Below, in pieces: positions 3,001-64,000 of a DNA stretch of 64,000 nt. The position numbers and the translations under genes are program-made. Location: assembly GCA_964016885.1 (NCBI GenBank), contig OZ024744.1, positions 67,394,001-67,458,000 on the forward strand, written 5' to 3'. The first letter of the stretch is position 1; each line of letters starts with the position of its first letter. The notes under the pieces were generated by a model. The model was not told where the DNA came from. It did no database searches and worked only from the letters and a program-made list of their open reading frames with translations. This DNA is from Eledone cirrhosa (lineage: Eukaryota).

Positions 3001-3805
3001 AAAATCAACTAGCCAATCTCTTCGGAAGGACTTTCGGGCCGGGGCCTATGGACAACTTCCAGAAATCCCTGGCCTGGCAATGCTACCGAGGAGCTTTGCC
3101 AGTTCGGGATAAACTCTACAGGCATGGAGGTGCCGTCAGCCGGGCATGTCCGAGATGCGCACAGGGCGACGAAACCGTCCTGCACGCACTCGTCCAGTGT
3201 CCGAGCATTGCTGACTTGTGGGTTTATGTCGAACACCTGCTGTCACGTGTAGAACGGATCCGGCTATCAGCTGAGTCCATCGTGAGGATTGCCCCGCCCC
3301 CTTCCTTTAGCCGGGAAGGGCAGGCAGTTTTTATCTCTCTGGTGGCCATGGCGAAAGAGATAGTATGGTGGACACGTTTGAAAGGGCTGAAGACGAGCAC
3401 TTACCTCTTCGGTGATGCCCTGATTAACTTTTTCAAATTTCATTTGAAAAGGAAAATCAGGGTAGAGAGGGAAGTGCTCTCTTCCCACCATTTTGTTGAA
3501 AGATGGGTGAGAGAAGCAAGTATGGCCCGAATAAATGGGCCTTCTCTGAGTATGTGTCTGTAAATTAAAGGTGGAAAACTGGGAGAGGGCACTTGCCCTG
3601 GTGGTCAGGGCCACTGTGGTCTTTTAATGGGCTTTCTCCACAAATGTCCCTTGGAAGTCTCCCCCCTATTGGGGAATTTTTCTTTGTTATTTTATTTCAA
3701 CCTCTGTTTTTTTACACGCAGAAATGCCCATTTGTACCGTCCTGTATTGTCCTGTACTGTCCTTAATGTCTACTTTATGTGAACCCTTGTGGTTAATAAA
3801 GAAAA

Positions 3806-3845
<40 letters not shown>
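1..3845 (+). mobile_element. Tx1-clade non-LTR retrotransposon, subfamily A copy 1 (5' end outside window; ORF2 frameshifted)
   Basis: ORF fragments 219-3563 carry APE motifs (ISET, VYAP, GDWN, SYLDR, TDH, GYWKLN), RT motifs (KSPGLDG, NFRPITLLN, VRQGCPLS, AYADD) and a C-terminal CPRC..ETVLH..C finger; AATAAA at 3795 then (ATT)n 3807-3845. Confidence 0.93.
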
Positions 3846-4056
3846 GACGAAAGTGGATGTACGTTTTTTGAGGCTCCGTGAGTGAGCAGTTTTTGAGGAT
3901 TAGTTGTGGAGAATTGTTTATTTTTTGTACCGCTGAGGCATTGTGAGACATTAATTTGTGTCCTGTGAAGGAGTAGCTCATAATGTTTGGGCCTTTTGGC
4001 CCAAATATTTGAACTTTGTTTTGAAAAAGAATAATAATTTTTTTTCTCAAAAAAAC

Positions 4057-5919
4057 ATGGCGGAGCCGCGCCCCCTAGAGGCGGGTCTGCTGTCGTGCAG
4101 CGGCGACTTGAGCGTTGAGAGGAGAGGTGAGGCGAGGAGCGCCACCAGCACGAGTGTGAGCAGCGACAGTGCCAGCACCGGCGGGCCGAGCGGCGCGGAG
4201 GGTGGTAGCAGCGACAACACCAGCACCAACAAGCCGAACAGCGCGGAGGGTGGTAGTGGCGAGAGCACCAACAAGGCCAACAGCACAGAAGGTAACCACG
4301 ACACAGGGGAGAACAACAACAGCAATAGCAGCAGCAACACCAACAAGAACAACAACAGTGACAACACCAACAAGAACACTTTCGCTGCTGTGGCAGCGGC
4401 TAAAAGGAGACCATGCTGCAGCATCGACTTAACCAACAGAGAGGAAAAGTTGGCCCAGGCCTGGAAAATCATAAATCAAGAGCAGACCTGGGCAAACTTA
4501 ACTGTCCCGGCAGAGGCCATTGAGGCAGTGGAGAGAAGAACGGTGCATTTCAGATGCATCTCAGTAGAGACAAGGAGGGCAGCGATAATCGCCCAAGCTG
4601 ACATAGAAGCCGCACTGAAATACATCAGAGAGGACACAGACTTCATAGAGGGGGGCAGGCAATACGGCACCGTTTCGGTGCTGTTCAAGTCTGAAGCCCT
4701 CGCTGTGAAGCATTCAATGACCCCTTGCAAAACCAGCAAGGTCATAATGTACCCCTCCCACATGGGAAAGCGAATGGCACGTGTGCGCATTCCCAGGATT
4801 CCACCAGGACTTGATATGTGGTGGCTCCTGGGTTGCGTAATCGTGGAAGGAACGGATACAGTCCCGGTAGAGGCAACGAGAACTGCCAGGGACGACTGGT
4901 CCGGGGTTGATCTGGAGATACTGCTCCAAATCAGACCCGAAAACGTAAAAACAATCCCGGACCACATCCGCCTCCAAAACGGGAGGGTGTTGCATATAAT
5001 GACTGAGGGCAAAAGGCCGCATTGTTTCCTTTGTGGGGAAACGACACACTTGCGAGCCTTCTGCCCTCAACTGCCGAAAAGCGCAAGGGGTCGAAAGATT
5101 CCACTGCTGGCGACGCCGGGACAAGGACCACCAGCAACACCGTCAACAATGGAACCACCAAAATTGCACACCCAGGGGGGAAACGGGGAAAGCTCTCCCA
5201 TTCCCCCTCCCCCCCAAAATACACACACGAACAAGAACATAAACACTCACTCAGACACAAACACGCTCACAGCCACAGACCCCTCATCCTCCAGCAGTGA
5301 AGATGAGGGAAAACCAAAGTCCCCCAAAATACAAAAAACAAAACACAAAAAAAAAAGAAATCCACAAAGCACAAACACCCCCACAAAAAAAAATACACAC
5401 ACCACCCACACAAACATTTTCCCCACAGCATCACCAACACAACCACCAAAATCCCCCAAACGCAAACAAGCTAAACAGACACAAGAACAAATAGACACAC
5501 AAACATCAGAAACTACAGACACCCCACCCACAACAAACGCAGACACAATAGAAACAACACTAACAAAGCTATCACCACCACAATCACACGAACAAATAAA
5601 ACCCGAGCAACAAAACATTAAAAACTTCGTGCTTGCCAGAAGGGCCAACAAGGAATTGATGGCCCATGTAGCACGAAGCACAAACATCGAAAAAGACGGG
5701 GAAACATTTGAAGCGAGCACATTTCGCGTACCAGATAATTTGCTTCTGATGCGAATGTCGCTCGCTTCATACAAAGAAATTCGAAAGAGCTTTCCTCGGG
5801 ATGTGGGAACCCCGAACGTAAAACCCACGTCAAGACTATTAAAGGGGTTCCCAAAAGAAACCCCACAAACCATGGAGGTCGAACCACCCGACCTTCACAA
5901 GACCCCGGAAGGTAAGTAA
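4057..5919 (+). CDS. Tx1 ORF1 protein (Gag-like RNA-binding protein with CCHC zinc knuckle), 620 aa from first ATG
   Basis: Open frame; ATG at 4057 in AACATGG context; knuckle CFLCGETTHLRAFC (CX2CX4HX4C); S/N/T-rich low-complexity linkers; ends G-K-stop. Confidence 0.9.
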   Translation: MAEPRPLEAGLLSCSGDLSVERRGEARSATSTSVSSDSASTGGPSGAEGGSSDNTSTNKPNSAEGGSGESTNKANSTEGNHDTGENNNSNSSSNTNKNNNSDNTNKNTFAAVAAAKRRPCCSIDLTNREEKLAQAWKIINQEQTWANLTVPAEAIEAVERRTVHFRCISVETRRAAIIAQADIEAALKYIREDTDFIEGGRQYGTVSVLFKSEALAVKHSMTPCKTSKVIMYPSHMGKRMARVRIPRIPPGLDMWWLLGCVIVEGTDTVPVEATRTARDDWSGVDLEILLQIRPENVKTIPDHIRLQNGRVLHIMTEGKRPHCFLCGETTHLRAFCPQLPKSARGRKIPLLATPGQGPPATPSTMEPPKLHTQGGNGESSPIPPPPQNTHTNKNINTHSDTNTLTATDPSSSSSEDEGKPKSPKIQKTKHKKKRNPQSTNTPTKKNTHTTHTNIFPTASPTQPPKSPKRKQAKQTQEQIDTQTSETTDTPPTTNADTIETTLTKLSPPQSHEQIKPEQQNIKNFVLARRANKELMAHVARSTNIEKDGETFEASTFRVPDNLLLMRMSLASYKEIRKSFPRDVGTPNVKPTSRLLKGFPKETPQTMEVEPPDLHKTPEGK

Positions 5920-5948
5920 ACCTTTCCTCTCCCATTCATCCTGCCAGC

Positions 5949-8900
5949 ATGGCCATAAGAGTAGGAAGTTTAAATGTTCGTGGCCTGGGGTCGCCCTGGA
6001 AGCAAGGTCACTTGCTCAACGACCTCAGGTCACTAGGAATGGATGTAATTGCCATCAGCGAGACCAGAATTTCCGACACACGCGCACTGGCGCCGATTTT
6101 CGACGATTATCAGATCTTTGCATCTGTTAGTCGGCCGGGAATGGGAGGTGGAGTGGCTGTGCTGTTTAGGAAATGTCTGGATCTCGAGGTAAGGTCAATC
6201 TTCCGGGATCCTGACGGAAAGTTGGTGGTCCTGGACGTGAGCAATAGCGAAGGTGGTGCCTTTAGACTGGTGGCCGTCTACGCCCCTACTGGGGCCGGTC
6301 GGCCGGACTTCTTTAGGCGCCTGGAAAACTTTCTGCTTACGTCTCGCCCTTTACTGTTAATAGGGGATTGGAATGGCATCTTAGAAGCACGCTGGGATTG
6401 TGTGGGAGTATCTGATAGGAGCGGGGGGTGCAAAAGCCTCAAGTACCTGATCAGCCAGTTTCAACTGTCTGACAGGTACCGACTAGATTTCCCTAATGCG
6501 CCAGTATGGACCTGGACCAATCGCATAGGGTCATCTAGATCGTACATAGATAGGATTTTCATTAGGAAAAGAGATAGAAATAGTGTAGGATGTCCACATT
6601 TTAAAACGGTTGCCTATTCAGATCACAAGCTTGTGATCTGTATGGTCGACCTAGATAAGACACGTAGGTTAGGACCTAGCTACTGGAAGCTAAACATATC
6701 GTTTCCGGCACGTAAAGCTTACAGGGACCGGGTCAACAACTTAGTTAAGCAAAAGTTGACAGGGGGGGTTGTCAACAACAGGTGGTGGGGGGCACTCAAA
6801 AGAGAGATTAGAGCAACCTCGATAGGATTTAGCAAAGAAGTAGCAATAGAGAAAAATAGAAAAGAGGAGGGGCTGATAGCTAAGTTAGACGAGGCTATTT
6901 GTAGTGGCATTGCAACAGACGTGCTAGCGGCGAGAATGGCACTAGACCATTTCTTCAATGCGAAACACGAAGGTTGCATTGTCAGAGCTAAGGCGCGTGC
7001 TCTGAGGAACGAGGGAACCAAAGCTGCCCGATGGGCTCGCTTTGCAGAGACGCAGCGTGGAAATAAAACCACAATTCGGTCTTTGACGGATCGAGATGGA
7101 CACGAACTGAGCGATTCCAAGCAGATGTGTGAGGCCTTTCGCCAGCACTTTGCTCGATTGTTCGGGAGGATGGGTGAGTCGGAGATGGCGGCGGACTTCA
7201 GTCCCTACCTCGACGGCTTGCCACGCCTCTCGACGGCCGACGCTGAGCGCTGCGAAGAGCCGATAACATCAGCCGAAATTCAGGACGCCCTTGTCGGCTG
7301 CTCGAGTCGCAAGTCACCCGGTTTGGATGGTCTGCCCTACGAGCTTTACGTAAATATGCCAGACTTGTTCTCCGATCTCCTCGAAGCGCTCTACTGCAAC
7401 TGGCAGCAGAACGGGAGCATTCCCAGTTCTGTGAGCCGTGGCGTAGTGACGCTGATAAGGAAAGACGAGAACAAGAGGGACACACTAGATAATTTCAGGC
7501 CCATAACCCTGCTCAACACAGAGTTTAAGATTTTGGCCAAGGTGTTAGCGAAAAGGTTGGCGCTTGTCGTCAAAGATTTGGTTGGGGAGGCGCAAACTTG
7601 CGCAATCCCGACCAGGTCCATACACGACAACCTCCACCTCATGCGATACATCATAGAGAGGGTTGGGTGCAAACCTGGCTTCGGTGGGGCTCTGATCAAT
7701 TTAGATCAATCGAAAGCATTCGATAGGGTCGACCATCGGTACTTGGAGGCTGTCCTCGAGGCGGCTGGCTTCGGCCCCGTCTTCAGAAGCTGGATCGCTG
7801 CAATGTACAGCGGCATCCGCTCGGTGGTCAAAGTTAATGGCCACCTCTCGGAACCGTTTCAGATCTCTCGATCGGTCCGTCAAGGGTGCCCTCTCTCCTC
7901 ACTTCTGTACGTATTGACTCTTGAGCCTCTACTGCGGAAGCTGGAGTTGTTGCAGGGCATCCCGCTCGAACCGGGACGTAGAAAGGCTGCGTCCGCTTAT
8001 GCGGACGACATCACCGTGATGGTGTCGGACACCTCGGAAATCGAGGTGATCCGCACCCATTTGGAGGAATATGAAAGGTTGACGGGAGCAAAACTTAACC
8101 CGGAAAAGTCGGTGGGCTTGCAGCTCGGCACCTGGAGAGGCAAGTCCATGCCGTCCAACAGCGTCGTTGGGCGCTGGACAGACGGACCGGTAAAGTTGCT
8201 CGGGGTTTGGTTCGGACCAGACCTCCAGGTGGATAAGAATTGGGACGAGGTGACGAGCAGGATAGCCAACCTCACCCAGAAATGGGCTGAGAGAAAGCTA
8301 TCACTGAAAGGGCGGGCGGAGGTGGCGAACGCGTACATCGCGTCCGTCATCTACTACCGCCTGACCGTCGTGCCTTGCCCCCGTCCACGCCTCGCCAATT
8401 TGGAACGGCTCCTTTTCAAATTTTTGTGGAGGGGACGGGTCCCGTTGGTGAGGCGGTCCATCTGCTGCCAGCACCCTCTTCGTGGAGGGCTGGGCATGCC
8501 GTGGCTAATGATGCGCAGACATGCGCTGAGGCTGCGACATCTCCAGATATTTTGCCTAAACGGTGAACAGGTGTGGTCGCCGTTTGTTAGACGGGCCTTT
8601 CCGCAGCTCATCTCTTTGACTGAGCTGCAGTCCTGGGTCAAGAAGAGACCGAGACTGGGCGACTGGCATCTGGAATGTTGCCAGGCGCTCACTGCACTCT
8701 GCAAGGTGGGCAATGCGGTCAGTGGAACTTCCACTCAAGATTTCTATAGAGGATTAGTGGAGGGCAAGTGCGATGACGTACTAGGAGAGGCTCTGGGCGT
8801 CAACGAAGTAGAACTGACCAGTATGTTCCGGAGGACTTTCGAGCCGGGGACGATGGATAACTTCCAGAAATCCCTCGCTTGGCAGTGCTACCGGGGGGCG

Positions 8901-9368
8901 CTGCCGGTTCGGGATAAACTCTACAGGCACGGAAGTGCTGTCAGACGAACCTGCCCGAGATGCGCGCAGAGCGACGAAACCGTTCTGCACGCACTCGTCC
9001 AGTGTCCGTGCATTGCTGACTTGTGGGGTTATGTCGAACAGCTATTGTCGCGTGTAGAACGGATCCGGCTATCGTCCGAGTCCATAGTGAAGATTGACCC
9101 GCCGCCTTCTTTTGGTCAGGAAGGGCAGGCAATTTTCCTCTGCCTGGTGGCAGTAGCGAAAGAGGTTGCATGGTGGACCAGGTTGAAAGGACTGAAGACA
9201 GACACTTTTCTCTTCGGCCAATCCCTCATCAACTTCTTCAAGTTTCACTTGGAAAGGAAGGTGAGGGTGGAGAGAGAAGTGCTGCCCCCCAGTACATTTA
9301 CTGAAAGGTGGGTGAATGTGGCGAGAATGGCCCGCGTGAGTGGGCCTACTCTGATCATGCGCCTGTAG
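5949..9368 (+). CDS. Tx1 ORF2: APE endonuclease + reverse transcriptase + C-terminal Zn finger
   Basis: Uninterrupted 1139 aa with SLNVRG, SET, YAP, GDWN, SDH (APE); LDQSKAFDRVDH, QGCPLS, YADD (RT); CPRC...H...C. Confidence 0.97.
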   Translation: MAIRVGSLNVRGLGSPWKQGHLLNDLRSLGMDVIAISETRISDTRALAPIFDDYQIFASVSRPGMGGGVAVLFRKCLDLEVRSIFRDPDGKLVVLDVSNSEGGAFRLVAVYAPTGAGRPDFFRRLENFLLTSRPLLLIGDWNGILEARWDCVGVSDRSGGCKSLKYLISQFQLSDRYRLDFPNAPVWTWTNRIGSSRSYIDRIFIRKRDRNSVGCPHFKTVAYSDHKLVICMVDLDKTRRLGPSYWKLNISFPARKAYRDRVNNLVKQKLTGGVVNNRWWGALKREIRATSIGFSKEVAIEKNRKEEGLIAKLDEAICSGIATDVLAARMALDHFFNAKHEGCIVRAKARALRNEGTKAARWARFAETQRGNKTTIRSLTDRDGHELSDSKQMCEAFRQHFARLFGRMGESEMAADFSPYLDGLPRLSTADAERCEEPITSAEIQDALVGCSSRKSPGLDGLPYELYVNMPDLFSDLLEALYCNWQQNGSIPSSVSRGVVTLIRKDENKRDTLDNFRPITLLNTEFKILAKVLAKRLALVVKDLVGEAQTCAIPTRSIHDNLHLMRYIIERVGCKPGFGGALINLDQSKAFDRVDHRYLEAVLEAAGFGPVFRSWIAAMYSGIRSVVKVNGHLSEPFQISRSVRQGCPLSSLLYVLTLEPLLRKLELLQGIPLEPGRRKAASAYADDITVMVSDTSEIEVIRTHLEEYERLTGAKLNPEKSVGLQLGTWRGKSMPSNSVVGRWTDGPVKLLGVWFGPDLQVDKNWDEVTSRIANLTQKWAERKLSLKGRAEVANAYIASVIYYRLTVVPCPRPRLANLERLLFKFLWRGRVPLVRRSICCQHPLRGGLGMPWLMMRRHALRLRHLQIFCLNGEQVWSPFVRRAFPQLISLTELQSWVKKRPRLGDWHLECCQALTALCKVGNAVSGTSTQDFYRGLVEGKCDDVLGEALGVNEVELTSMFRRTFEPGTMDNFQKSLAWQCYRGALPVRDKLYRHGSAVRRTCPRCAQSDETVLHALVQCPCIADLWGYVEQLLSRVERIRLSSESIVKIDPPPSFGQEGQAIFLCLVAVAKEVAWWTRLKGLKTDTFLFGQSLINFFKFHLERKVRVEREVLPPSTFTERWVNVARMARVSGPTLIMRL

Positions 9369-9625
9369 GCTGGTGAATTCGAGAAGGAGAGGGGTGCCCT
9401 TCCCGGGTGCCCTAGGAGCGTCGGGTGGCTCAGGACTGGTGGGGTGCTTGAGTCAACCCTGGGTGGTGATCCCTCTTATTGGGGAACTTTCATTGTTGTA
9501 TTTTTATTGTTATTTTGTTTTTGTTTTTTTGTTATTTATACTTACTCGATCTCTATGTAAACCCCCACTGTCCCTGTCTATTGTGTTGTCCCCTATATGT
9601 CGGCCCTTGTGGCCAATAAATGAAA

Positions 9626-9663
<38 letters not shown>

Positions 9664-9675
9664 GTTGTTGTTGTT

Positions 9676-12600
9676 TGAATGTGAAGCCACGCTTCTTATC
9701 GCCTCCAGTTTTTTCAACAGTTTACCTCGTTTTCAACCGTTCTAAACCTTTTATTCAAGTTTTAAACTTGACAAAAGTTTAGAAGAAGTGACCCACCTAA
9801 TACAGGGGTTCACTCGTAAATAATACGGCACCCCTTTACGGGGCATCGTATTATGTAAAGATATTATTTGACAAAAAAAAATGTATTTCAACATGGATAA
9901 CACAAGAATGAGAGAGAGAGAGCGCTGTTAGACAACACAGAGAGAGGGAGACTTTGTCAACATATCAACAAGACAGCGTTTAGCGAAGGTAAGCATAAAA
10001 GAAAATATTACGAAGGAAAAGAGGAACAATATCATTTTCAATGATATCGTTACAGATTTAAAATTACCAAATATTTCTAACACAAACAACACCAACAATA
10101 ACACCAACAACAACACCATCAATATCAACAGCAACAACAAAAATAACAGCGGTAAGGTCGGGAACGACAATAACAATGACAATAACAACAGCCACAACAA
10201 CAATAATAGTAGGAACAGTATCAACAAAAACAACAATAATAACAGCAGCCACAATAACAGTAACAACAGCAACAGTATCAACAAAAACAACAACAACAAC
10301 AGCAACAACTGTACCAACGAAAACATCAACAATGACATCGATACCTGTAACAGCGATCTCAGCACCACCAGTAAGACCAGTAGCGGCAGCAATAGTGGTG
10401 CTGCTGAAACGGGACCACTTCTTTTGCAGTTGTGGCCCGAAATATCGAAACAGTGTTAGTCACAGAGGAGGAGATGGCAGTCGCAAGGACCATGGTGACA
10501 AGAAACGCTAATAGAGTTTCCCTGAAATTTCCACCTGATTTTTTCAAGGACCAGCAGCTACGGACAGTGACTTACCGCACCGTAAGCAAAATGTCACATC
10601 GGGTGGAGAGAGCCACGGATGCTCAAATCCAAAATACCTTGGGGGGCGTCTGGGCGCGCAAAACCCACATTACCCGAGGCAGAAAGTACGCCACAGTAGA
10701 CGTATTTTTCGCCACCCCCCAAGAGACGAAGTCTCACTCTTTGGAAACCCTAAAGAGTGAGGAGATAGTCTTGGTGCCCTCCTACTGCGGCGGAAAATTG
10801 TGAGGGTTAAAGTGACCCAGGTCCCACCCGATGTGCCCATACATTGGCTGGCCTCGTCTGTACTGGCTGGAATCGAGGAGAAGACCACCATACCGCAAAT
10901 ACAGAGAATGGGAAGAGAGAACTGGTCAGGAATAGGCATGCAAATGCTAATACAGACTGACCAGGAGTGCATCGAGGCCATCCCAGACATCATAGACCTC
11001 GAAGAAGGGCTCTAACTCCCTATAAGCGTGGAAGGAAGGCGCCCAAAGTGCTATCTCTGTGGGCAGAAGGGTCACCTCAGGGCCTTCTGCCCGCAGAAGT
11101 CAGCCAAGAAGAAGGCCCCCTCCTTCCGACGCTTGATCCGCTAATACCAAGAGCAGGGCAGGCAACAGAGGCAGAAGACCCCTCCATGGTGAGTAGGAGG
11201 GCAACGTCCGTGGCACCCATACCAAGGCCACGGACAACTAAAGCAGCGGCAGCAGTGGCGGCAACATCAATCGTCGCAGTAGCCACATCGGCAGCAAAAT
11301 CGCCGGAGCGGGCTCCACTACCACCACCAATGGAGCTCATACCCATCCCAGACGCCACGGAAGCTGACATGGAGTATGAGGCGGGAGGGAATTGGCAAAC
11401 GATCTGCCACAAAAAAACAAAGGAGGAAAAACTCCTTAGCTTCACCCCCCAAAAGGTGAAGGCAGACAAAGAGGGGCAAAGGTTGCAAGGAGACTAGCAG
11501 CAACACCACCACCATCACCATCACCACCACAAGCATCACCACCAACAACAACCACACCACCACCAGCATCACCAAAAAGACCAACATCGCAAACACAACA
11601 AAACACACACACCCAACAGCAACAACAAGAAAACAGCAACAAAATCACCCCTCCTCCCAAAAAGTACACAGCCATAAACATGGCAAATAAAGAACTCAGC
11701 ATACAGACATCACAGAAAAAAACTACTACACCCAACCAACACCAAGAACTCTCCCGACAAACATAAGCATCATTGAAATCAAAATAGAACAGTACAAACT
11801 TTTAAAACAAAAATTCCCCAACGCAGTTGGAGACTTCAGAGGGTGGGTTACCAAGAGGATATACACTGACATTCTCTTGGAAACACCCATGATCAGCCAA
11901 AGGGACGGTTCTACTGTCCCTTCACCACACGATCAAGGTAAGTGACCCTTTCTCACTTGCCCCGTTTCTCATCCAACATGGCCGTACTTAGAATAGGCAG
12001 TATAAATGTACGTGGCCTGGAGTCATCCTGGAAGCAGGGTCACCTGCTCAACGACCTCAGGTCACTAAACATAGATGTGGTGGCCATCAGCGAGAAAAGA
12101 ATATCCGAAGCACGAGTCTTCGCACCGATCTTCGGCGGCTACGATGTATACGCATCTCCCAACCGTCCAGGATCGGGGGAAGGGGTGGCAGTGCTTTTTC
12201 GGAGAGGCTTGGATCTCGCCATACGTCTTCCTAGACCCAGAAGGTAAGTCGGTGGTGCTGGACGTGACCGGCAGCGAAGGCAATGCTTTTAGGCTAGTAG
12301 CCGTCTACGCCCTAAAAGGGGCAGGACGAACATATTTCTTCAGACGTCTAGAGACCTTTCAAGGAACGTCCCGCTCTTTAGTGGGCGACTGGAACGGTAT
12401 CTTAGATGCACGCTGGTATCATGTGGGGCTAGTAGACAGGACAGGAGGGTGCAAGAGCCTCAACAACCAGCTCAGACGTTTTGAACTGTCTGACAGGTAT
12501 AGACTGGATTATCCTAATGTGACAATGTGGACATGGACAAACAGCATCGGGTCATCCAGATCGTATTTAGATAGGGTATTCTGTAGGGAAACAGATAAGG

Positions 12601-15719: not shown

Positions 15720-17848
15720 ACAACAAAAAATACAGACACCACTAACGCAAACATTTCTCCAATAACATCAACACCAACATCGACACCACCCCCACAATCC
15801 CCGAAACACAAACAACCTAAACAAACACAAGAACAAATAAACACACAGACACGTGAAATTGCAGACACCACACGTACAACAAACACAGACATACCCGAAA
15901 CAACACCAACAAAACTATCACCACCACAGTCACCAAAACGAAAACAAATAAAACCACACCAACAAAATATTAAAAACTTCGTGCAGAGGGCCAAAGATAA
16001 ATTGATGGCCCTCTTAGCACGAACTGAGGACATTGAAACAGAGAGGGAGATCTTTGAATTGAGCACATTTTGCGTGCCAGAAGATTTGTTTCTGGTGCGA
16101 ATGTCGCTGGATCCCTACAAAGAAATTCAAGAGAGCTTTCCTCAAGACGTGGGAACCCAGAACGTGAAACCCACATCGACTTTTAAAGGGGTTCCCAAAA
16201 GAAACCCCACCAACCGTGGAGGTCGAACCACGCGACCTTCACAAGACTCCGGGAGGTAAGTAAACCTTCCATCTCTCTTTTAGCTTGCCAACATGGCCAT
16301 ATTAAGAGTAGGAACTTTAAATGTTAGTGGCCTGGGCTCACCCTGGAAGCAGGGTCGCCTGCTCAATGACCTCAGATCTCTGGAAATGGATGTGATTGCC
16401 ATCAGCGAGACCAGGATTTCCGACACGCACGCACTAGCTCCCATTTTCGACGACTATCAGATCTTCGCATATGTTAGCAGGCCGAGAATGGGAGGTGGGG
16501 TGGCAGTGCTGTTTGGGAAAGGCCTGGATCTCGTGGTAAGGTCGATCTTCCGGGACCATGACGGTAAGATGGTGGTCCTGGGTGTGAGCAGTAGCGAATG
16601 TGGAGCCTTTAGACTACTGGCCGTCTACGCCCCTACTGGGGACGGACGATCGGACTTCTTTAGGCACCTGGAAACCTTTCTGGGTACGTCTCGCCCTTTA
16701 TTGTTAGCGGGGGACTGGAACGGCATCTTAGACGCACGCTGAGACTGTGTGGGAGTAGCTGATAGGAGCGGGGGGTGCAAAAGCCTCAATCACCTAATCA
16801 GCCAGTTCCAACTGTCTGACAGGTACCGACTAGATTTCCGCATAAGGTCATCTAGATCGTATATAGACAGGATCTTCATTAGGAAAATAGATAGAAATAG
16901 TGTAGCTGCCCACTTTTTAAAACGGTCGCCTATTCAAATCACACATTTGTGATCTGTATAGTCGACCTAGATAAAACGCTTAGGTTAGGACCGGGTTACT
17001 GGAAGCTGAACATGTAATTTCCGGCACGTAAGGCTTACAGGGATCGAGTCAACAATTTAGTTAAGCAAAGGTTGACAGGGGGATCGTCAACAACAGATGG
17101 TGGGGGCTCTCAAAAGGGAGATTAGAGTAACTTTGACAGAGTTTAGCAAAGAACTAGCGTTAGAGAAAAATAGAAAGGAGGGGCAGCTGGTAGATAAGTT
17201 AGACGAGGCTATTTGTAGTGGCATTACAACAGACGTGCTAGCGACGAGAATGGCATTAGACCATTTCTTCAATGCGAAACACGAAGATTGCATTGCCAGA
17301 GCTAAGGCGCGTGCGCTGAGAAACGAGGGTACCAAAGCTGTTCGATGGGCCCGCGTGGCAGAGGCGCAGCGTGGTAATAAAACCACAATTCGTTCTTTGG
17401 CGGACCGAGACGGACACGAGATAAGTGATTTCAAGCGGATGTGAGGCCTTTCGCCAGCACTTTTCTCAGTTGTTCGAGGTGAGAGGCGGGTCAGAGACAG
17501 TAGCGAATTTCAGTCCCTACCTCGATGGCTTGCCGTGCATCTCGACGGTCGACGCTGAGCGCTGCGAAAGGCCGATTACTTCAGCCTAAATTTAGGACGC
17601 CTTGTTGGCTGCATGAGGCGCAAGTCACCCGGTTTGGATGGCCTGTCCAACGAGCTTTACGTAAATATGCCAGACTTGCTCTCCGATCTCCTCGAAGCGC
17701 TCTACTGCAACTGGCACCAGAATGGGAGTATTCCCAGTTCTGTGAGCGGAGAATTAGTGACGCTGATAAGGAAAGACGAGAACAAGTGGGATACATTAGA
17801 CAACTTCAGGCCCAAAACCCTGCTCAACACAGAGTTTAAGATGTTGGC
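15720..17848 (+). mobile_element. Tx1 subfamily B copy 2 (ORF1 C-terminus plus ORF2 APE and start of RT; decayed)
   Basis: Colinear with 5380-7540; ORF2 ATG at 16293; premature stops. Confidence 0.92.
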
Positions 17849-18391: not shown

Positions 18392-21102
18392 CGAATGAGA
18401 GGGTAGAACTCATACCCCTCCCCGACCTCTCACAGTCGGACATGGAGTATGAAGCGGCAGAGGAGTGGAAAACGGTTGAAAAAAAAAAAGCAAAAATGCA
18501 AAAACTGCACAGCTTCGCCCTCCAAAAGCAAGGGCAAAGAAAGAGGAGTAAAGGCTGCAAGGAGACTTGCAACAACATACCACCATCACCATCACCACCA
18601 CAAACATCACCACCAACAACAAATACACCACGCCATCATCACAACAAACACCAACATCGCAAACACAACAAAGCACACACACCCAACAGCAACAATAAGA
18701 AAACAGCAACAAAATCAAATCTCCTCCAAAAAAGTACACAGCCATAAACATCGCAGATAAAGGATTAATGGAAGATATAAAGCAGCACAGAGACATTTCA
18801 GACATAAATTACCACACCCCACCAACACCAAGAAAATTACCAAAAATTATTGACATTGTCGAAATTAAACTGGAAGTTTATAAACAGTCAAAACAAAAAT
18901 TCCCCAACGCAGTGCCGACCACCTCAAAACCATCACGGTGATGTCCACATAAGCCAACACACTCAGGGGCACTCTCCAAAAGAATATACACAGATATCAT
19001 CTTGGAAACACCCATGACCAGCCAAAAGGACGGTTCTACTGTCCCTTCCCCACACAATCAAGGTAAGTGATCCTTTTTCACTTACTCCGTTCCTCACCCA
19101 GCATGGCCGTACTCAGAATAAGCAGTGTAAATGTACGTGGCCTGGGATCATCTTGGAAGCAGGGTCACCTGCTCAAAGACCTCAGGTCACTAAACATAGA
19201 TGAAGCACGAGCCTTCGCACCGATCTTCGGCGGCTACGATGTATATATGCATCTCCCAGCCACCCGGGATCGGGGGAGGCGGTTGCTGTGATTTTTCGGA
19301 GTGGCTTGGATCTCGCCATACGGGCCTTCTTCCTGGACCCAGAAGGTAAGTCGGTGGTACTGGGACAACTTCAGGCCCATAACTATGCTAAACGCAGAGT
19401 TCAAAATTTTGGCCAAGGTGTTAACAAAGAGATTGGCGCTTGTCGTCGGTGATCTGGTGGGAGAGGCGCAGACATGCGCCATTCCAGACAGATCCATCCA
19501 CGACAACCTCCATCTCATGCGATACATCATAGAGAGAGTGGTTAAGGAACCTGGCACGGGTGGGGCCCCGATCAACTTGGATCGATCTAAAGCATTTGAT
19601 AGGATCGACCATCGGTACCTGGCTGCGGTCTTCCAGGCGGCCGGCTTCGGTACCGTTTTTAGGGGCTAGATCGCTGCGATGCATAGTGACATCCACTCGA
19701 TTGTGGGGATGAATGGTCACCTGTCGCAGTCGTTCAGCATCATCCTCTCGGTCCACCAAGGTTGTCCCTTCTCGTCCCTGTTGTACGTACTGACCCTCGA
19801 GCCGTTACTTCACAAATTGGAGACGATGAGGAGGATCCCACGCGAACTGGGATGCGGGAGATTCGTGTCAGTTTACGCCGACGACGTCACCGTGGTGGTG
19901 TCGAGCACCAAACACGTCCAGATGCTCGGAACTGCTCTCAAGGAATACGAAGTGGTGACAGGGGCAAATATAAAGGGCCGATTAAATTGCTCGGGGTCTG
20001 GTTCGGACCGGACCTCCAGATGGAGAAAAACTGGAGCGAGGTGATGAGCAGGGTGGCCTCTCTCAACCAGAAATGGGCTGAGTGGAGGCTGTCTCTGAAA
20101 GGTCGGGTGGATGTGGAGAATGCGTACATCGCGTCCGTCATCTACAACCGCCTGACTGTCGTACCTTGCCCCCACCCAACTCTGACCAAAATGGAGCGCC
20201 TTCTCTTCTGCTTTTTGAGGAAGTGGCGTGCTCCCATGTTCAGACGATCCCTCTGCTGTCAGCACCCGTTGCGTGGAGGACTGGGCATGCCATGGCTGAT
20301 GATGCGCAAACATGCGCTGAGGCTGCGACCTCTGTTGCTTCCTTGACGGTGAACATGTGTGGTCGCCGTTTTCCTGGCGCGCTTTTCCCCAGCTCGTGTC
20401 CTTGACGGAACTGCAGTCCGAGGGATAGCGCTTGGAAGCTGGAATGTCTCCAAGCACTCACCGCCCTCTGCCAGCTGGGCATAGTATCGGTGGAACATCC
20501 CCCTCGGCGTTCTATAGAAGGCTAGTGGAGGGGGAAAGTGACGACGTTCCCGGGGAGACCCTTGGCGTCGAAGACGATCATCTGTTCGCTCTCATCGAAA
20601 GAACTTTCAGCCTGGGACCTATGGACAACTTCCAGAAATGCCTGGCCTGTCAGTGCTATCGGGAAGCGTTGCCGGTTCGGGATAAGCTCTACAAGCCTGG
20701 AGGTGCTGTCAGCCTAACCTGTCCGAGAGATGCGCGCAGGGCGACGAAACCGTCGTGCACGCACTCGTTCTGTGCCCGAGAATTGCTAACTTGTGGAGCT
20801 ATTCGAACAGTTGCTGTCGCGTGTAGGACGGATCCGGTTATCGACTGAGTCCATTGTGGAGATAACCCCACCATACTCCTTTAAAGAGGAGGAAGGGCAA
20901 GCAGTTTTCATCTGCTTGGTGGCCATGGCGAAACTGATTGTGTGGTGGACAAGGTTGAAAGGGTTGTAGACGGACACTTTCCTCTCTGGCCAATCCCAGA
21001 TTAACTTTTTCAAGTTTCACTTGAAGAAGAAAATCAGAGTGGAGAGGCAAGGTCTGTCTTCTAGTAAGTTTGTTGAAAGGTGGCTGAAAGTGGTGAGTCT
21101 GG
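17850..21102 (+). mobile_element. Tx1 subfamily A copy 3 (5'-truncated; internal ORF2 deletion at ~19362)
   Basis: Colinear with 10830-12260, then jumps from DPEGKSVV to DNFRPIT; RT and C-terminal finger remnants to ~21100. Confidence 0.9.
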
Positions 21103-23300
21103 CTGCAAGCCCACCGACTTTTCCGGATTAAGTTTCGCTCCCTTCATCCTTTCATATTCCTCCAATAAGGTGCCGACCACCTCAACACCATCACGGTGAT
21201 ATCCACATAAGCCAACACAACCTTTCCACATCCCGGTTCGAGTCGGATACCCTGCAACAGCTCTAGTTTCCGCACCCATGACGGACCGATTGGGAGATCT
21301 GAAACGGTTCCGAAAGGTGGCTATTGGTTTTGAACACCGTGCAGATGCTGTTGTGCAGAATCCAGCTGCGTTAAGGGCAGCTTCCAGGTATTGATGGTCG
21401 ACCCTATCGAAAGCTTTCGTTTGATCTAAATTGATCAGAACCCCACCAAAGACAGGTTTACACCCTACCCTCTCTATGATGTATCGCATCAGGTGGAGGT
21501 TGTCGTGTATAGACCTGGTCGGGATTGTGCAGGTTTGCGCCTTCCCAACCAAATCCTCGACGACAAGCGCCAACCTCTTCGTTAACATTTTGGTCAAAAC
21601 CTTTAAACTCTGTGTTGAGCAGAGTTATGGGCCTGAAATTATCTAAAGTATTCCTCTTTTTCTCGTCTTTCCTCATTAGCGTCACTACGCCCCAGCTCAC
21701 AGAACTGGGAATACTCCCGTTCTGCTGCCAGTTGCAGTAGAGCACTTCAAGGAGATCGGAGAACAAGTCTGGCATGTCTACGTAAAGCTCGTTGAGCAGA
21801 CCATCCAAACCGGGTGACTTGCGCCTCCCGAATTTTGGCTGAAGTTATCGGCCTTTCGCTCTATCAGCAGTGTTTTGGCCCCTTCACTTTGAAAGTGCAG
21901 GGGCCAAAAATCTCTCCCTCTTTCTCATTGTTTTGTCTTTATGTTACAAGGACTATAAATATTTTTGTTGGTCCTTCTTAGTAACACGAAGTTAGGTGTT
22001 TCTAGCATGTTCTCACTGTTGTAGGGCATGAGTTGCGGTTGTGTCGATGTTGTTGGTGGTGGTTGTCTTTTGTTGACGGCGTTAGTGTTGTTCTATGTGT
22101 GTCTTTGTTTGCTGAGGGAGTGTTTTGAGTGCTTTGATGGTGTGTGAATGTTGGTCTCTGTGTGTGTGTGTTTGAAAGAGGAGAAGAAGGAGAGCTTTAT
22201 TGGGTGATCTCCCGTGGTGGCTGGTGTTGTCTTCGATGTTGTTGTTTGCAGTTCTCTCACTATTGCTTCTGCTGTTGCTGGTGTAGCTGTTGATCTTGTT
22301 TGCGGCTGCTGTTGTTGTTGAGGTTGTTTTGGTTTTAGCAGCAATGGAGTACTGTCTTCAGATGAGGAGAAGAGGCCTTAAAGTGTTTTTTTTTTCTCCG
22401 CACAAGTGACAGCGAGGTCTAAGGTGTCGGGAAGGGATCTATCTAGTCGTGTTTTAAGTAAAGCTCTATTTCCATACTGGTCCCGAACCAGAGTTCCTTC
22501 CGGGTGTGCTTTCCATCTAGGATGGACAATTTATTTTTTTGCAATCTAAGACGCTGACCATAATCCACCACGTGTTATACCCTGGTCGGATGCTAGGAAC
22601 CTTTATCCTTACTGTCCTTCTTCCTTGGTAGGAAGGGTACAGTATTGATTGGCCCGTTCGGACGGAGACCACAGAGTGTTTTCACGGCCCGATCTTTGCT
22701 CTTAAAGAGCACTAAAATGGTCGCTTATTGTTTTGTCCTGCCAATGCGTTCTATGTCAGGCATGATGTCTTTCAGTGCTCTTTCGCAATAATCATGTGGT
22801 GCTACTTGTGGGCGTCTGAATTTGCTATCCACTTTTCTGTACGTCAAAGTTGTTCTGTTCAATGCCACCAACACCTCGGGTGGAGCTATTATGTCTAACC
22901 TCCTTCATTTTTTGGTGCTTCATAAAAGCGGCCATTTGTGCCAAATATACATCTTTGCTTTTTAAGTTCATCGTAATCATTTGTTTGCGCTAGCTGCAAA
23001 TGTGTTGTTCTTGTCAATGTTTGTTGTTGTTTATTGTTGTCGTGGTGGTGTTGGTGGTGGCGTCAGTGTTTTTATTTGTGTCGTTGTTGCTTTTGATTCA
23101 ATATGTACTATTTGTTGTGGAAAGTGCTGTGGTAGATTTGAAAATGTTATATTGGGCCTTAAGCACACGCCGTGACAGTTTCCACTGTTGTGGCCGCTGC
23201 TGCTGTTTCTGCCGCCGTTGCTGCTGCTGCTGCTGCTGTTGCTGCTGCGCTGTTGCTGCTGTGGTTCTTTCAGGACAGCAAAAATTAGCAATAACTTATA
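21102..23300 (-). mobile_element. Inverted Tx1 remnants: RT fragment (21102-21860) and ORF1 of a third subfamily (21860-23300)
   Basis: ORFs 21061-21597 and 21458-21808 match ORF2 RT; minus strand 22700-22960 translates to ..RTTLTYRKVD..ERALKDI..ATILVLFKS, alignable to ORF1 RRTVHFRCIS..EAALKYI..GTVSVLFKS. Confidence 0.8.
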
Positions 23301-53759: not shown

Positions 53760-56700
53760 GTCTTTGACAAACTGCTCAGTTGCTCGCATGTGTGCGTGCT
53801 GAATTCTGTGTCTTTCCGCTGGGAACAACCCCTGGTCCCCCCCCCCTCTTTTTTTGTGTACATCCATCCATTCACTCATTCATTTACTGCCATTCTACCT
53901 TCCCGTGTCTCCTCCTCCATGCAGCCCCTTTTCGCTCTCGTTTTCTAGCACCTCCATATATATAGGTGAGATATGCTGCCCTCTTACCAGCACTTTCCCT
54001 TCCAACTACACACACCAGCCACCCACCCCTGATGCCGCTCGGTGCCCCAGTCCCCGGCCCCACGCCCCATCCCCCACCCCTCCAAATCGACACCTGCAGC
54101 ACTTGCGGCAATACTAACAAACGGAAGAGGGGCCGGAACTGTTTGGGGTGCGGCTGCTTCCACCACCTCACCTGCGTTGGCTTGACTCGTCGAGCTTCGA
54201 ATGCCCTCGCAGCGTGGAGGTGCAGGAGCTGCCTCTTCCCCACGTCTTCCCAGCCACGGCCGTCTCGCACACCACCAGATGGGACAGCGAGCTTGCCTGA
54301 CGCCCGAGCCTCGCTGGTCAACATCGCTCGGCTCAGGCGGCTCCGGAAGCTCCCACTCAGGATCCCGAGAGCGGCACGGGTGCCGGTAGCCGATGCCCTC
54401 ACTTGCTCGATTGAGAGCGCCCTGGACTCCAATCAAGCCAGTGACTGGGAGCGGCTGTTCTATTTCGCCTCACTTGCCCTCGGCCTCCCCAGCTCTGGCG
54501 CTGACCGGGGCGGCCGGTCAGCAGCAGCCTTCGTCAAGGCCAATGTATCGTCATTTGGGCGAGCGCCCATTCCAAGCGTACCCAGGGACGCCACACACCC
54601 CACCCTCAGGTACCCCCTATCCTCCACCCCCGAGGCCAGCGCCAAGCGTTTGCGTGACCAGGTAAACGCAAAGCTTATCGTGGGTGATGTCTCGGCCGCA
54701 GTCAGAGTTGTTGCCTCAGAGGACACTGTCCTCCAACCCACCGAGGAGATCCTGGCTGCTCTTCGACTCAAACACCCTGAACCACCCACTGATCTCAGAT
54801 CCATACCCCCATCCGACCCCACCAGCTCCTTGTGGCTACTGATGCAGATATTATGTCCGCCATCAGGTCCTTCCCAGCTAGCAGCTGCGGAGGTGTTGAT
54901 GGTCTCCGACCAGGCCACCTCAAGGAGTTGACATCCCCCTCTCCGCTGAGGCCGGGTACTGCCTTCTGAGTGCAATTGTGGCGCTCACCAATAGGCTCAT
55001 TCATGGTGCCCTCGCCCCTTACTCCCGAGGCCTCTTTTTTTCGGCCAGCCTCACTGCTCTCAGGAAGAAAGAGGGTGGCATACGCCCCATTGCTGTGGGC
55101 AATGTCTTCCGGAGGCTGGCTGTCAAGGTGATCTGCAAGTCCGTCACACACGAACTGGGTGAGGAGTTTAGTCCGGTGCAACTGGGTGTCGGCGTGTCCG
55201 GTGGCTGTGAGGGATCCTCTCATGCAATCAGGCAGTTCTTCAGCAGCTGCCCATCGGTACCGGCATCCAGGGACTCCAGGCACCTCATTGTTAAGCTTGA
55301 CATGAGGAATGCCTTCAACTCTTTACGCCGGGATCATCTGCTCGAGGCCTGCCTCAGCCGAGCCCCCTCTGCCTACCCGCTGGCCTACCTGACATATGGA
55401 GCCCCGAACATGCTCCTAGCTGCTGATACGGTCATACCCTCGGCTACTGGGATCCAACAGGGCGACCCTTTGGGACCCCTCCTCTTCGCCCTTGGTATTG
55501 ACCACATCGCCCGGAGTATCACGGCCCCTCTCAACGTTTGGTATCTGGATGATGCTACGTTGGGTGGGCCCGTACGGACGGTCTGCCAAGACCTTCAATC
55601 GGTGATTCCTGCCCTGGCGGGAATCGGCCTCCAGGTCAACTCGGCTAAGTCGGAGGTGGTGAACGTCAGCCTCGTTGCTGTGAGCTTTGCAGCCTCCGTC
55701 TTGGACGTGCGGTCCGTTCTCCGCCATGTTCAGGTGACCCCCAAAGAGGATGTCCTCATCCTCGGGTCACCGATCCACCCGCCGGCCATCCGCTCCACCA
55801 TCAGGTCCAGGCTTCAACAGCTCCAGACTCTCACGAGCCGACTGGGCTTGATTGACGGTCACCCAGCTCTCTTTCTGCTGCGGAACTGCTTCGCCATGCC
55901 TAAGATCCTCTATACACTCCGCAGCGCTCCGTGCTACACCCAGACATCTCTCCTCGCTGATCGCGATACTTGTATCCGAGAAGCAGCCGAGGGGATATGC
56001 AACGTCAAGTTTGACGACATAGGGTGGCAACAGGCCACTTTACCGGTCAGGTATGGCGGCCTAGGCCTCCGGTCCCCGATCTCACTAGCTTTGCCGGCGT
56101 ATCTTTCGTCGGTAACCTCGTGCCGCGTCCTCGTCAGCAGGGTTCTTCAAAACACAACAGAACCCTCTGTGTTCAGAGAACGCGAGGCCACCTGTGAGAC
56201 GTGGGCCCGGCTGGGACTTAGCCCAGTAGACGTCCCTCCTCCTCCTCCTCCTCCTCCCCCTATTGACGTTAAGTCCCCCCCCCACCGCACTTGGGATGCC
56301 ATCCAGTGCAGCCTTGTCTCAGACAGGCTCACGCGCCAGCTCGACCAGCACCGCCTTGCTTGTTTTCGTGCGGCCTCCAAACCCCACAGTGGTGCCTGGC
56401 TCCATGCCCTGCCCTCCTTCTCCACTGGCACGCAGCTAGACAACCATAGCCTGCGAATCGGCGTTTCCCTGAGGCTCGGTCTCCGGATCTGCCAGCCACA
56501 CCAATGTCGCTGCGGTTCCACCGTGAACTCTTTCGGCCTCCACCCGCTTTCCTGTCGCCACAGTGTCGGCCGCATTCCACGCCATACTGCCCTTAACGAG
56601 GTCATTAAGCATGGCTTGGACGCTGCAGGCCTCCCGTCCCAGCTCGAGCCGGTGGAGCTGGATCGAGGGGACGGCAAAAGGCCAGATGGCATGACCATCT

Positions 56701-57139
56701 TCCCGTTCCGCGGTGGCAAGCCCCTTGTCTGGGATGCCCCTTGCACCGACACTTTCTGTAGCCCCAACTTGGTGCAGTCTGCGACTGACCCAGGTTCTGC
56801 TGCACGTCGGGGTAAGGGGGCCAAACTCCTCAAATACCGGTCGCCATCCGACAGGTTTGCGGTCGTTCTCCTGGCAGTGGAAACTTCTGGTGTCCTCGGC
56901 CCCAGGGCTACCTCCCTACTCACCACCATAGGCGCTGAGCTGGCCAGCCGTAGGTGTGAGCCCCGCGAGTTGGAGTCGCTTTTCCAGCGCGTCTCCCTTG
57001 CCGTCCTCCGGGGAAATGCCTTCTCCATTCTGTCCGCCGGGGCTGTGGGTGGGCCCCATCGCGTACCATTACATTAGTTAAATACCATTCTTTCATTTCT
57101 TAACATTATTAAACCATTCTAAGTATTAAAAAAAAAAAA
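53760..57139 (+). mobile_element. Near full-length CRE-clade (RLE-type) non-LTR retrotransposon
   Basis: One long coding region with RT, CCHC finger and PD..D nuclease, short 3' UTR, poly(A) 57128-57139; 5' boundary uncertain. Confidence 0.88.
53966..57077 (+). pseudogene. CRE-like polyprotein: PHD finger + RT + CCHC + restriction-like endonuclease, two frameshifts (~54831, ~54938)
   Basis: CSTC..CLGC..H..C..WRCRSC; SCGGVDGLRPGHL in the middle frame; GIRPIAVG, KLDMRNAFNS, QQGDPLGPLLF, WYLDD; CRCG..H.LSC, RH..LN, KRPDG, VETSG. Confidence 0.88.
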
Positions 57140-63842: not shown

Positions 63843-64000
63843 ATATATATATATATATATATATACCAATGTGTCGAAGAATTGTTAATTCTAATTCAAA
63901 TTATTATGAATTTGTTGAATGTAATAAGATAATTAGCTTTTAATTGTTTTGTAATTTCATAATATAGTAGATCCATCTACTTATATATTATATATATATA

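Follow-up and report, generated by a model that had tools for sequence, protein, structure and literature searches.

A conserved U1-complementary splice donor at the end of ORF1 in L1-clade LINEs of Eledone cirrhosa and its possible use in splicing out ORF2

Long interspersed nuclear elements (LINEs) are treated as intronless bicistronic RNAs, with the ratio between the products of ORF1 and ORF2, their pair of open reading frames, set by translation. The subject here is a 5' splice site (donor) at the end of ORF1 in LINEs from a stretch of 64,000 nucleotides of Eledone cirrhosa DNA (contig OZ024744.1, positions 67,394,001 to 67,458,000), called below the window. Among described systems, the gag RNA of Ty1/Copia elements offers the closest comparison. 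For Arabidopsis EVD, the cited portion of the literature reports a spliced subgenomic gag RNA and the blocking of premature termination by U1 at the same site (PMC5580714). A conserved U1-type donor lies near the end of the structural gene in both cases, and Copia's spliced RNA yields the structural protein alone. As far as that portion describes it, however, Copia is a long terminal repeat (LTR) element that has a single ORF and whose short intron is linked to early termination, whereas the element considered here is a two-ORF LINE in which the predicted intron would take up the entire 3.45 kb ORF2 and have its 3' end at the ORF2 stop codon. Human L1, the source of SpIREs (PMC5860796, PMC2896524), belongs to the L1 clade and likewise contains internal donors, one of which, in the 5' untranslated region (UTR), is conserved. 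In the cited sections, L1 events begin in the 5' UTR, give SpIREs or ORF2-only RNA and are read as inhibitory, the donor being kept by a RUNX3 site; here the donor coincides with the ORF1 stop, and the search for spliced retrocopies turned up none. The major splice donors of HIV-1 and foamy virus are further examples of a U1 site lying no more than a few hundred nt from poly(A) signals of a retroelement; the HIV-1 donor, in the part of the source used, suppresses the 5' LTR poly(A) signal located 195 nt upstream of it (PMC3694450). The retroviral signals are in LTRs, while here they are in A-rich ORF1 and their suppression is putative. The Tx1-clade elements Kibi and Koshi (PMC4494074) are likewise animal LINEs with APE endonuclease and reverse transcriptase (APE-RT) that insert in a microsatellite; their target repeat differs from the (ATT)n and, in sister subfamilies, (CTAT)n-like repeats found here, and the cited part of that paper does not describe splice signals. 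No description of such ORF-boundary splice signals was found in the Tx1/LINE literature searched, most subscription journals and supplements lying outside the search.

The left 21 kb of the window form a head-to-tail array of APE-RT LINEs in a genome of 3.0 Gb. The motif RAGGTAAGT is found in the window 10 times, against 1.16 matches expected. As the earlier note on this DNA had reported, matches start at 212, 5909, 11935, 16253 and 19060 and are followed by a pyrimidine-rich spacer; from each of them the distance to the ORF2 start downstream is 37-40 nt. All five are on the plus strand and belong to copy 1 (212-220, subfamily A1, phase 2), copy 2 (5909-5917, subfamily B, phase 1), copy 3 (11935-11943, subfamily C, phase 1), copy 4 (16253-16261, subfamily B3, phase 1 by homology to B) and copy 5 (19060-19068, subfamily C, phase 1). 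In copy 2 the site reads AAG/GTAAGT, with the GT at 5912, and 9 of 11 bases pair with the U1 5' end. The letters are labels of this analysis for 13 subfamilies in three main lineages (B/B3; A/C/D; CTAT-tailed E, F, G, H and I). Among 90 consecutive copies, the first 90 of at least 100 endonuclease-pattern matches listed on one contig (C1), G/GTA(A/G)GT was present at the ORF1 end in 85, located 43-72 nt upstream of the endonuclease Gly. Control windows contained a donor motif in 3 of 900 cases in ORF1 and 14 of 600 in ORF2 (17/1500 together). The five copies without the motif comprise three single-base donor variants, one deletion and one truncation. The donor is present in all 13 subfamilies, in phases 0, 1 and 2, and its variation stays donor-compatible, with A or G at +4 even inside one subfamily. 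The spacer ranges in length from 25 to about 52 nt, while G at +5 and T at +6, both non-coding, are fixed. A search of the genome for U1 gave 42 matches, with the canonical 5' end in all three that were read, and a U1 pairing score of at least 7.5 of 11 was obtained for 87 of the 90 copies. The sites therefore have the GT and the complementarity to the host U1 5' end by which a U2-type 5' splice site is recognized.

The question arises whether the motif could be a by-product of the coding sequence. Of 166 four-fold ORF2 columns compared over the same subfamilies, only 30 are invariant, and ORF2 DNA identity among subfamilies is 67-95%. The ORF1 cores are about 26-45% identical between lineages, without DNA alignment, and the ORF1 DNA of the copy 1 and copy 2 lineages gave no blastn alignment, as the earlier note had said. 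While synonymous ORF2 sites vary and ORF1 cores have diverged, the donor is kept, and it is kept in three ORF1 frames, so that coding does not account for it. A nucleotide-level constraint on a U1-complementary site is very probably real. Free synonymous variation among young copies, which had been put forward as a check, is uninformative in that these copies are too alike; the motif is kept in 29 of 30 B loci. Identical 9-mers at 12241 and 19343 lie inside the endonuclease (D-P-E-G-K-S) and were set aside as a codon coincidence, the intact copy 2 having none there and a strict match occurring in 2 of 13 representatives. A hairpin around the donor forms in many subfamilies, but it was likewise set aside as due to composition (p<0.05 in 1/15 by tract shuffle and 2/15 by exon shuffle). 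Of 67 loci from distant metagenomic relatives (ORF2 23-32% identical), 21 were read. In 18 of these the part read included the ORF2 start, and a strong donor lay on the ORF1 stop in one of the 18. That locus, with 26% ORF2 identity, carries it at L147:1880-2030, where ORF1 ends G-E-stop. The donor is thus mostly absent in distant relatives and is a feature of this lineage, not one general to such relatives. When a 40%-identical relative was used as the query, most of the matches were subfamily B copies and no clearly deeper lineage emerged.

The position of the donor relative to the reading frame was scored wherever a copy had 150 or more open codons upstream of it. Phase 2, in which ORF1 ends R-stop, was found in A1 (12/12), A2 (15/16), E (7/8), E2 (3/3), F (14/15), D (2/3) and H (4/7). 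Phase 1 (G-K-stop) was found in B (3/3), B2 (2/2) and C (2/2), and phase 0, reading E/V with the stop 36 nt later, in G (11/11). The ORF1 stop shifts relative to the donor (+1, +5, +36) and the motif stays. The proposal that ORF1 ends G-K-stop at all five junctions has to be corrected accordingly: the copy 1 subfamily ends V-R-stop (AGG TAA, stop 216-218). The TGG that had been taken for a mutation of copy 1 is its subfamily's normal state, with the frame held in 12/12 and 15/16 scorable copies of two branches. The actual mutation of copy 1 is at its ORF2 start, which reads ATT (253-255). The central claim of a conserved U1-binding 5' splice site is strengthened beyond the evidence first given for it by the motif's occurrence in three frames.

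The consequences are best followed in copy 2, an intact, full-length L1/Tx1-like LINE of the young subfamily B (3846-9663, plus strand, as are all its features), which sits in the (ATT)n tail of copy 1 and in which both ORFs are open. Its ORF1 (4057-5919) encodes a 620-aa gag-like protein of RRM/CCHC type with the C-terminus E-G-K-stop; Atlas matches to CCHC/RRM clusters reached 0.90-0.93, and no Pfam match was obtained for this ORF. It is A-rich, with poly(A) hexamers at 5595, 5617 and 5838. The pyrimidine-rich spacer (5920-5948) is followed by ORF2 (5949-9368; 1139 aa), with APE endonuclease, RT and zf-RVT domains (PF03372, PF00078, PF13966), and by AATAAA and the (ATT)n tail (9615-9663). 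We propose that the U1-complementary site at the ORF1 end starts an intron whose acceptor would be the ORF2 stop itself (pyrimidines and YTRTAG/G). In copy 2 the candidate acceptor lies at 9345-9376, with its AG at 9367-9368 and the predicted exon from 9369, so that spacer and ORF2 would form a retained intron at 5912-9368; no junction was seen. A stop at 9374-9376, just past the candidate acceptor, lies in the donor's frame. Across the subfamilies, the ORF2 stop is TAG behind a pyrimidine-rich run in 10 of 13 representatives. By an ad hoc acceptor score, applied to nine TAG subfamilies (E1 left out) and containing no host-derived splice-site model, the ORF2-stop AG ranked among about 260 AGs as 1 in G, 1-3 in H, 4 in B3, 5 in B, 7 in I, 8 in E2, 11 in F, 17 in E3 and 23 in C. 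In 8 of 10 subfamilies a stop stands no more than three codons past this acceptor when the frame of the subfamily's own donor is read, compared with 3 of 20 other frames and a background of 10%; these counts share ancestry and reduce to three lineage-level matches, perhaps two of them independent. The phase-1 lineages B and C have phase-1 stops, and the phase-2 CTAT lineage has phase-2 stops (TGA; TAA in H). In this test one C-like copy was missed by the pattern and five of eight C stretches were scored.

In A and D the ORF2 stop is TAA and a T-tract/CGCAG site is present, while C keeps TAG and reads CGCAC there in all four copies read at the site. The 3' UTR acceptor suggested earlier for copy 1 (3701-3721, plus strand) does exist, ending at 3720-3721; it is specific to the A/D branch and missing from B, C and the CTAT-tailed subfamilies. 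It fits as a replacement for the lost ORF2-stop TAG acceptor. In the CTAT-tailed subfamilies (L109-L126) the ORF2 stop reads TAG/GT, an acceptor followed by a donor-like GT. An acceptor directly abutting a donor-like GT is the arrangement of recursive splice sites.

A second U1 match is found near the 5' end of the elements. In 9 of 12 5' UTR types a strict donor lies within the first 100 nt, where shuffling predicts about 0.1 for each. Copy 2 carries such a donor-like site at 3875-3883 (CC/GTGAGT, GT at 3878). In five of six CTAT types a YAG stands 2-5 nt ahead of the ORF1 AUG; the B-type 5' UTR donors have no acceptor ahead of the AUG. With a 5' UTR donor and a YAG just before its AUG, ORF1 of the CTAT-tailed subfamilies is bracketed like an exon. 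A common 5' UTR layout (window 3878-4056 and others) comprises donor, U-rich run, GC-cored hairpin and A-rich leader. In arrays, the 5' donor lies about 60-130 nt downstream of the preceding element's AATAAA, and read-through might be favoured by this proximity.

Taken at its simplest, the proposal is that splicing from the donor, in certain cells or to a regulated extent, removes the spacer together with ORF2 as one intron and so gives an ORF1-only mRNA; we assign it a probability of roughly 0.52. In this mRNA, ORF1 would end 0-3 codons from its normal C-terminus and the element's own poly(A) signal would be used; the A/D branch, without TAG, would use the 3' UTR site. The purpose would presumably be an excess of ORF1 protein. 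ORF2 protein would come from unspliced RNA alone, likely by termination-reinitiation, and new insertions would likewise have no other template. To this extent the element may work like copia gag splicing without being a member of that family. A broader formulation is put forward more tentatively, as a possibility slightly short of even odds: the LINE would have the layout of a three-exon gene, with ORF1 as an exon and ORF2 as a retained intron reaching from the ORF1 stop to the ORF2 stop, the downstream stop tracking the donor frame and only unspliced RNA being retrotransposed, a retrovirus-like strategy in a non-LTR element.

A number of observations weigh against splicing. Because the subfamilies are related, the counts are not independent, and for B3 and I, where scoring was impossible, the phase was assigned by homology. 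E2 and E3 have lost the frame-matched stop, only one event underlies the A/D acceptor swap, and about four candidates had been inspected before the acceptor was picked. At the ORF2 end, four-fold sites are conserved to an ordinary degree (0.68 versus 0.62, top 27%). Spliced retrocopies at the ORF1 donor were sought with patterns that each catch only some possible acceptors. None was found in B, where no copy had a changed +1 base and only point variants occurred, at +2 (two, both B3) and +3 (two); all 70 A matches were point changes or deletions, and C (5 matches), E/G (9) and F (0) gave none. Such retrocopies are expected to be missing if cis-preference holds; an ORF2-less RNA would be a poor template. 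RNA spliced from the 5' UTR donor would, in contrast, be an adequate template, unless both introns are removed together, and here too spliced retrocopies numbered 0 against 456 unspliced G copies; E1 and H had none either, and the B copies, 40 of 40, were unspliced. No RNA data set is listed as holding the element. One sequencing run, X4, whose library is not on record, is RNA-like in its uneven depth, unlike the DNA-like X1 and X2; its contigs, which drop rare variants, run unbroken over both predicted sites (5868-6443 and 9305-9615), and no splice joint was present among the joints listed (565 others are unlisted).

Three features of X4 that might be mistaken for splicing were rejected. Contig depths of 20.5, 196.6, 191.4 and 21.4 across 3998-6443, and 348.5 at the 3' end, do not indicate ORF1-only RNA, because the pattern is symmetric about the A-rich tract 5325-5393 and contig depth cannot rank gene parts; it would fit oligo-dT capture of fragments. 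The contig start at 9305, close to a would-be acceptor at 9308, is explained by 629 sibling copies diverging at 9335, and the break at 5897/5868 by 305 copies of the sibling B3. For the idea of an ORF1-only mRNA, already raised in the earlier note, the matching acceptor at the ORF2 stop with its frame-matched stops speaks in favour, while neither the DNA retrocopies nor the RNA-like run contained a spliced product. Its further suggestion of splicing between neighbouring elements or into host exons found no support here.

As no spliced product was seen, protection by U1 without splicing stays the main alternative. It assumes that U1 binds and rarely splices, the ORF1-end site suppressing upstream poly(A) signals in A-rich ORF1 and the 5' UTR site protecting the 5' part, so that full-length RNA is made. 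In 11 of 13 representatives the ORF1 region contains AATAAA or ATTAAA, in most cases 200-760 nt upstream of where the endonuclease begins, compared with 0-3 in ORF2; B-type 5' UTR donors without an acceptor ahead of the AUG, and the lack of spliced retrocopies and of a junction in X4, suit this explanation as well. Precedents exist in the cited parts of PMC3694450 and PMC5580714. Nevertheless, neither the frame-matched stops that follow the ORF2 TAG, nor the A/D acceptor swap, nor the YAG before the ORF1 AUG would be expected from it, and C and I keep the donor without having ORF1 hexamers. We consider it somewhat unlikely. Splicing and suppression of poly(A) signals by U1 can coexist, as the consulted part of the EVD report indicates (PMC5580714).

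The motif could also be inherited baggage or a translation signal, combining stop context and a leader for ORF2 reinitiation, unrelated to U1. One ancestral AGG-TAR-GT end would explain part of the pattern, synonymous sites are unsaturated, and the endonuclease 9-mers arise by codon chance; reinitiation is also pointed to by subfamily G, with no ORF2 AUG and a stop overlapping ATA. It is hard to reconcile this with a motif that stays in place as the stop moves, with fixed non-coding bases at +5 and +6 beside a spacer of variable length, and with the recurrence of a second U1 match in divergent 5' UTRs; we regard it as improbable. The removal of a mini-intron of 40-60 nt, fusing ORF1 to ORF2, is hardly credible. 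In phase-2 subfamilies an in-frame fusion would result from the first AG, which falls in the endonuclease's L-R codons, but the same AG is out of frame in the phase-1 subfamilies B and C, and in subfamily G no acceptor ahead of the N-x-R-G motif is in frame. Many of the acceptors would be AAG or GAG, the introns only 39-59 nt long, and an X4 contig bridges the spacer unspliced.

Regarding classification, the best relative of ORF2 in the structural database is L1 ORF2p (PDB E 4e-57, versus 5e-22 for R2). ORF2 has the APE endonuclease, RT and C-terminal zinc finger of the L1 clade, together with a separate nucleic-acid-binding ORF1 and AATAAA with a simple-repeat tail, by which the element is an L1-clade LINE. 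It is Tx1-like, a provisional label adopted from the earlier note and from general features of that group; the searches made for named Tx1 sequences to set beside its RT gave none. A target preference, which is a Tx1-clade trait, is seen in the (ATT)n next to B copies and in the head-to-tail arrays: (ATT)n lies directly 5' of 39 of 40 B copies, the remaining one being unreadable. B copies with an intact endonuclease start are 5'-complete in the same 39 readable cases of 40. Two tail or target types occur, (ATT)n in A, B, C and D and (CTAT/TCTG)n-like in E-I (window 3807-3845 and 9628-9663; L109-L126), each forming mixed head-to-tail arrays with a period of about 5.8 kb. Genome-wide, the endonuclease-start pattern has 11,871 matches against 760 for a control pattern. 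The 22-nt ORF1 end of copy 2 is found in 337 genomic B copies, many of them in arrays with 5.84 kb spacing.

Some subfamilies deserve separate mention. A1 and A2 (L063 versus L114 and L062) have in common their ORF2 (95%) and the last ~45 nt of ORF1, but their 5' UTRs and the ORF1s themselves differ, as if ORF1 had been exchanged at a point immediately upstream of the donor. In subfamily G (L112, L117-L119, L124), ATA replaces the ORF2 AUG in 11 of 11 sampled copies and the ORF1 stop overlaps the ATA; at least 456 copies with a 5' end exist despite this. AUG-independent translation is known for L1 ORF2. The arrangement in G suggests that its ORF2 may be made by reinitiation on unspliced RNA.

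Copy 2 is also distinguished by a private, ADAR-like A-to-G cluster (3872-4776, plus strand). In its first 930 nt it shows 34 G-for-A differences from another copy, and 29 of its G-for-A changes are private and accompanied by no other private substitution, compared with 0-1 in 40 other copies. The 5' neighbour preference is marked: 30 of 144 sites after U or A are changed versus 5 of 171 after C or G (35 sites, a few being shared variants; p 3e-7). The cluster fits ADAR-hyperedited RNA that was reverse-transcribed into the genome; a limited literature search on retrotransposed ADAR-hyperedited RNA found nothing. Elsewhere in the window, the array ends in inverted ORF2 and ORF1 fragments (21102-22900, minus strand). 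A GC-rich second LINE-like element at 53966-57077, broken by a frameshift, has RT and a C-terminal cysteine/histidine and nuclease-like motif. An inverted repeat pair (61175-62076 and 62928-63844; 85% over 957 nt) is probably a DNA transposon, and the remaining two donor-motif matches, at 61961 and 63037, lie inside it. An Rfam scan of the window gave no match.

The young subfamily B, with at least 337 near-identical copies, makes splicing readily testable. If the proposal is correct, this would be a LINE that uses the spliceosome, or U1 alone, in its life cycle, and it would converge in this respect on copia and retroviruses.

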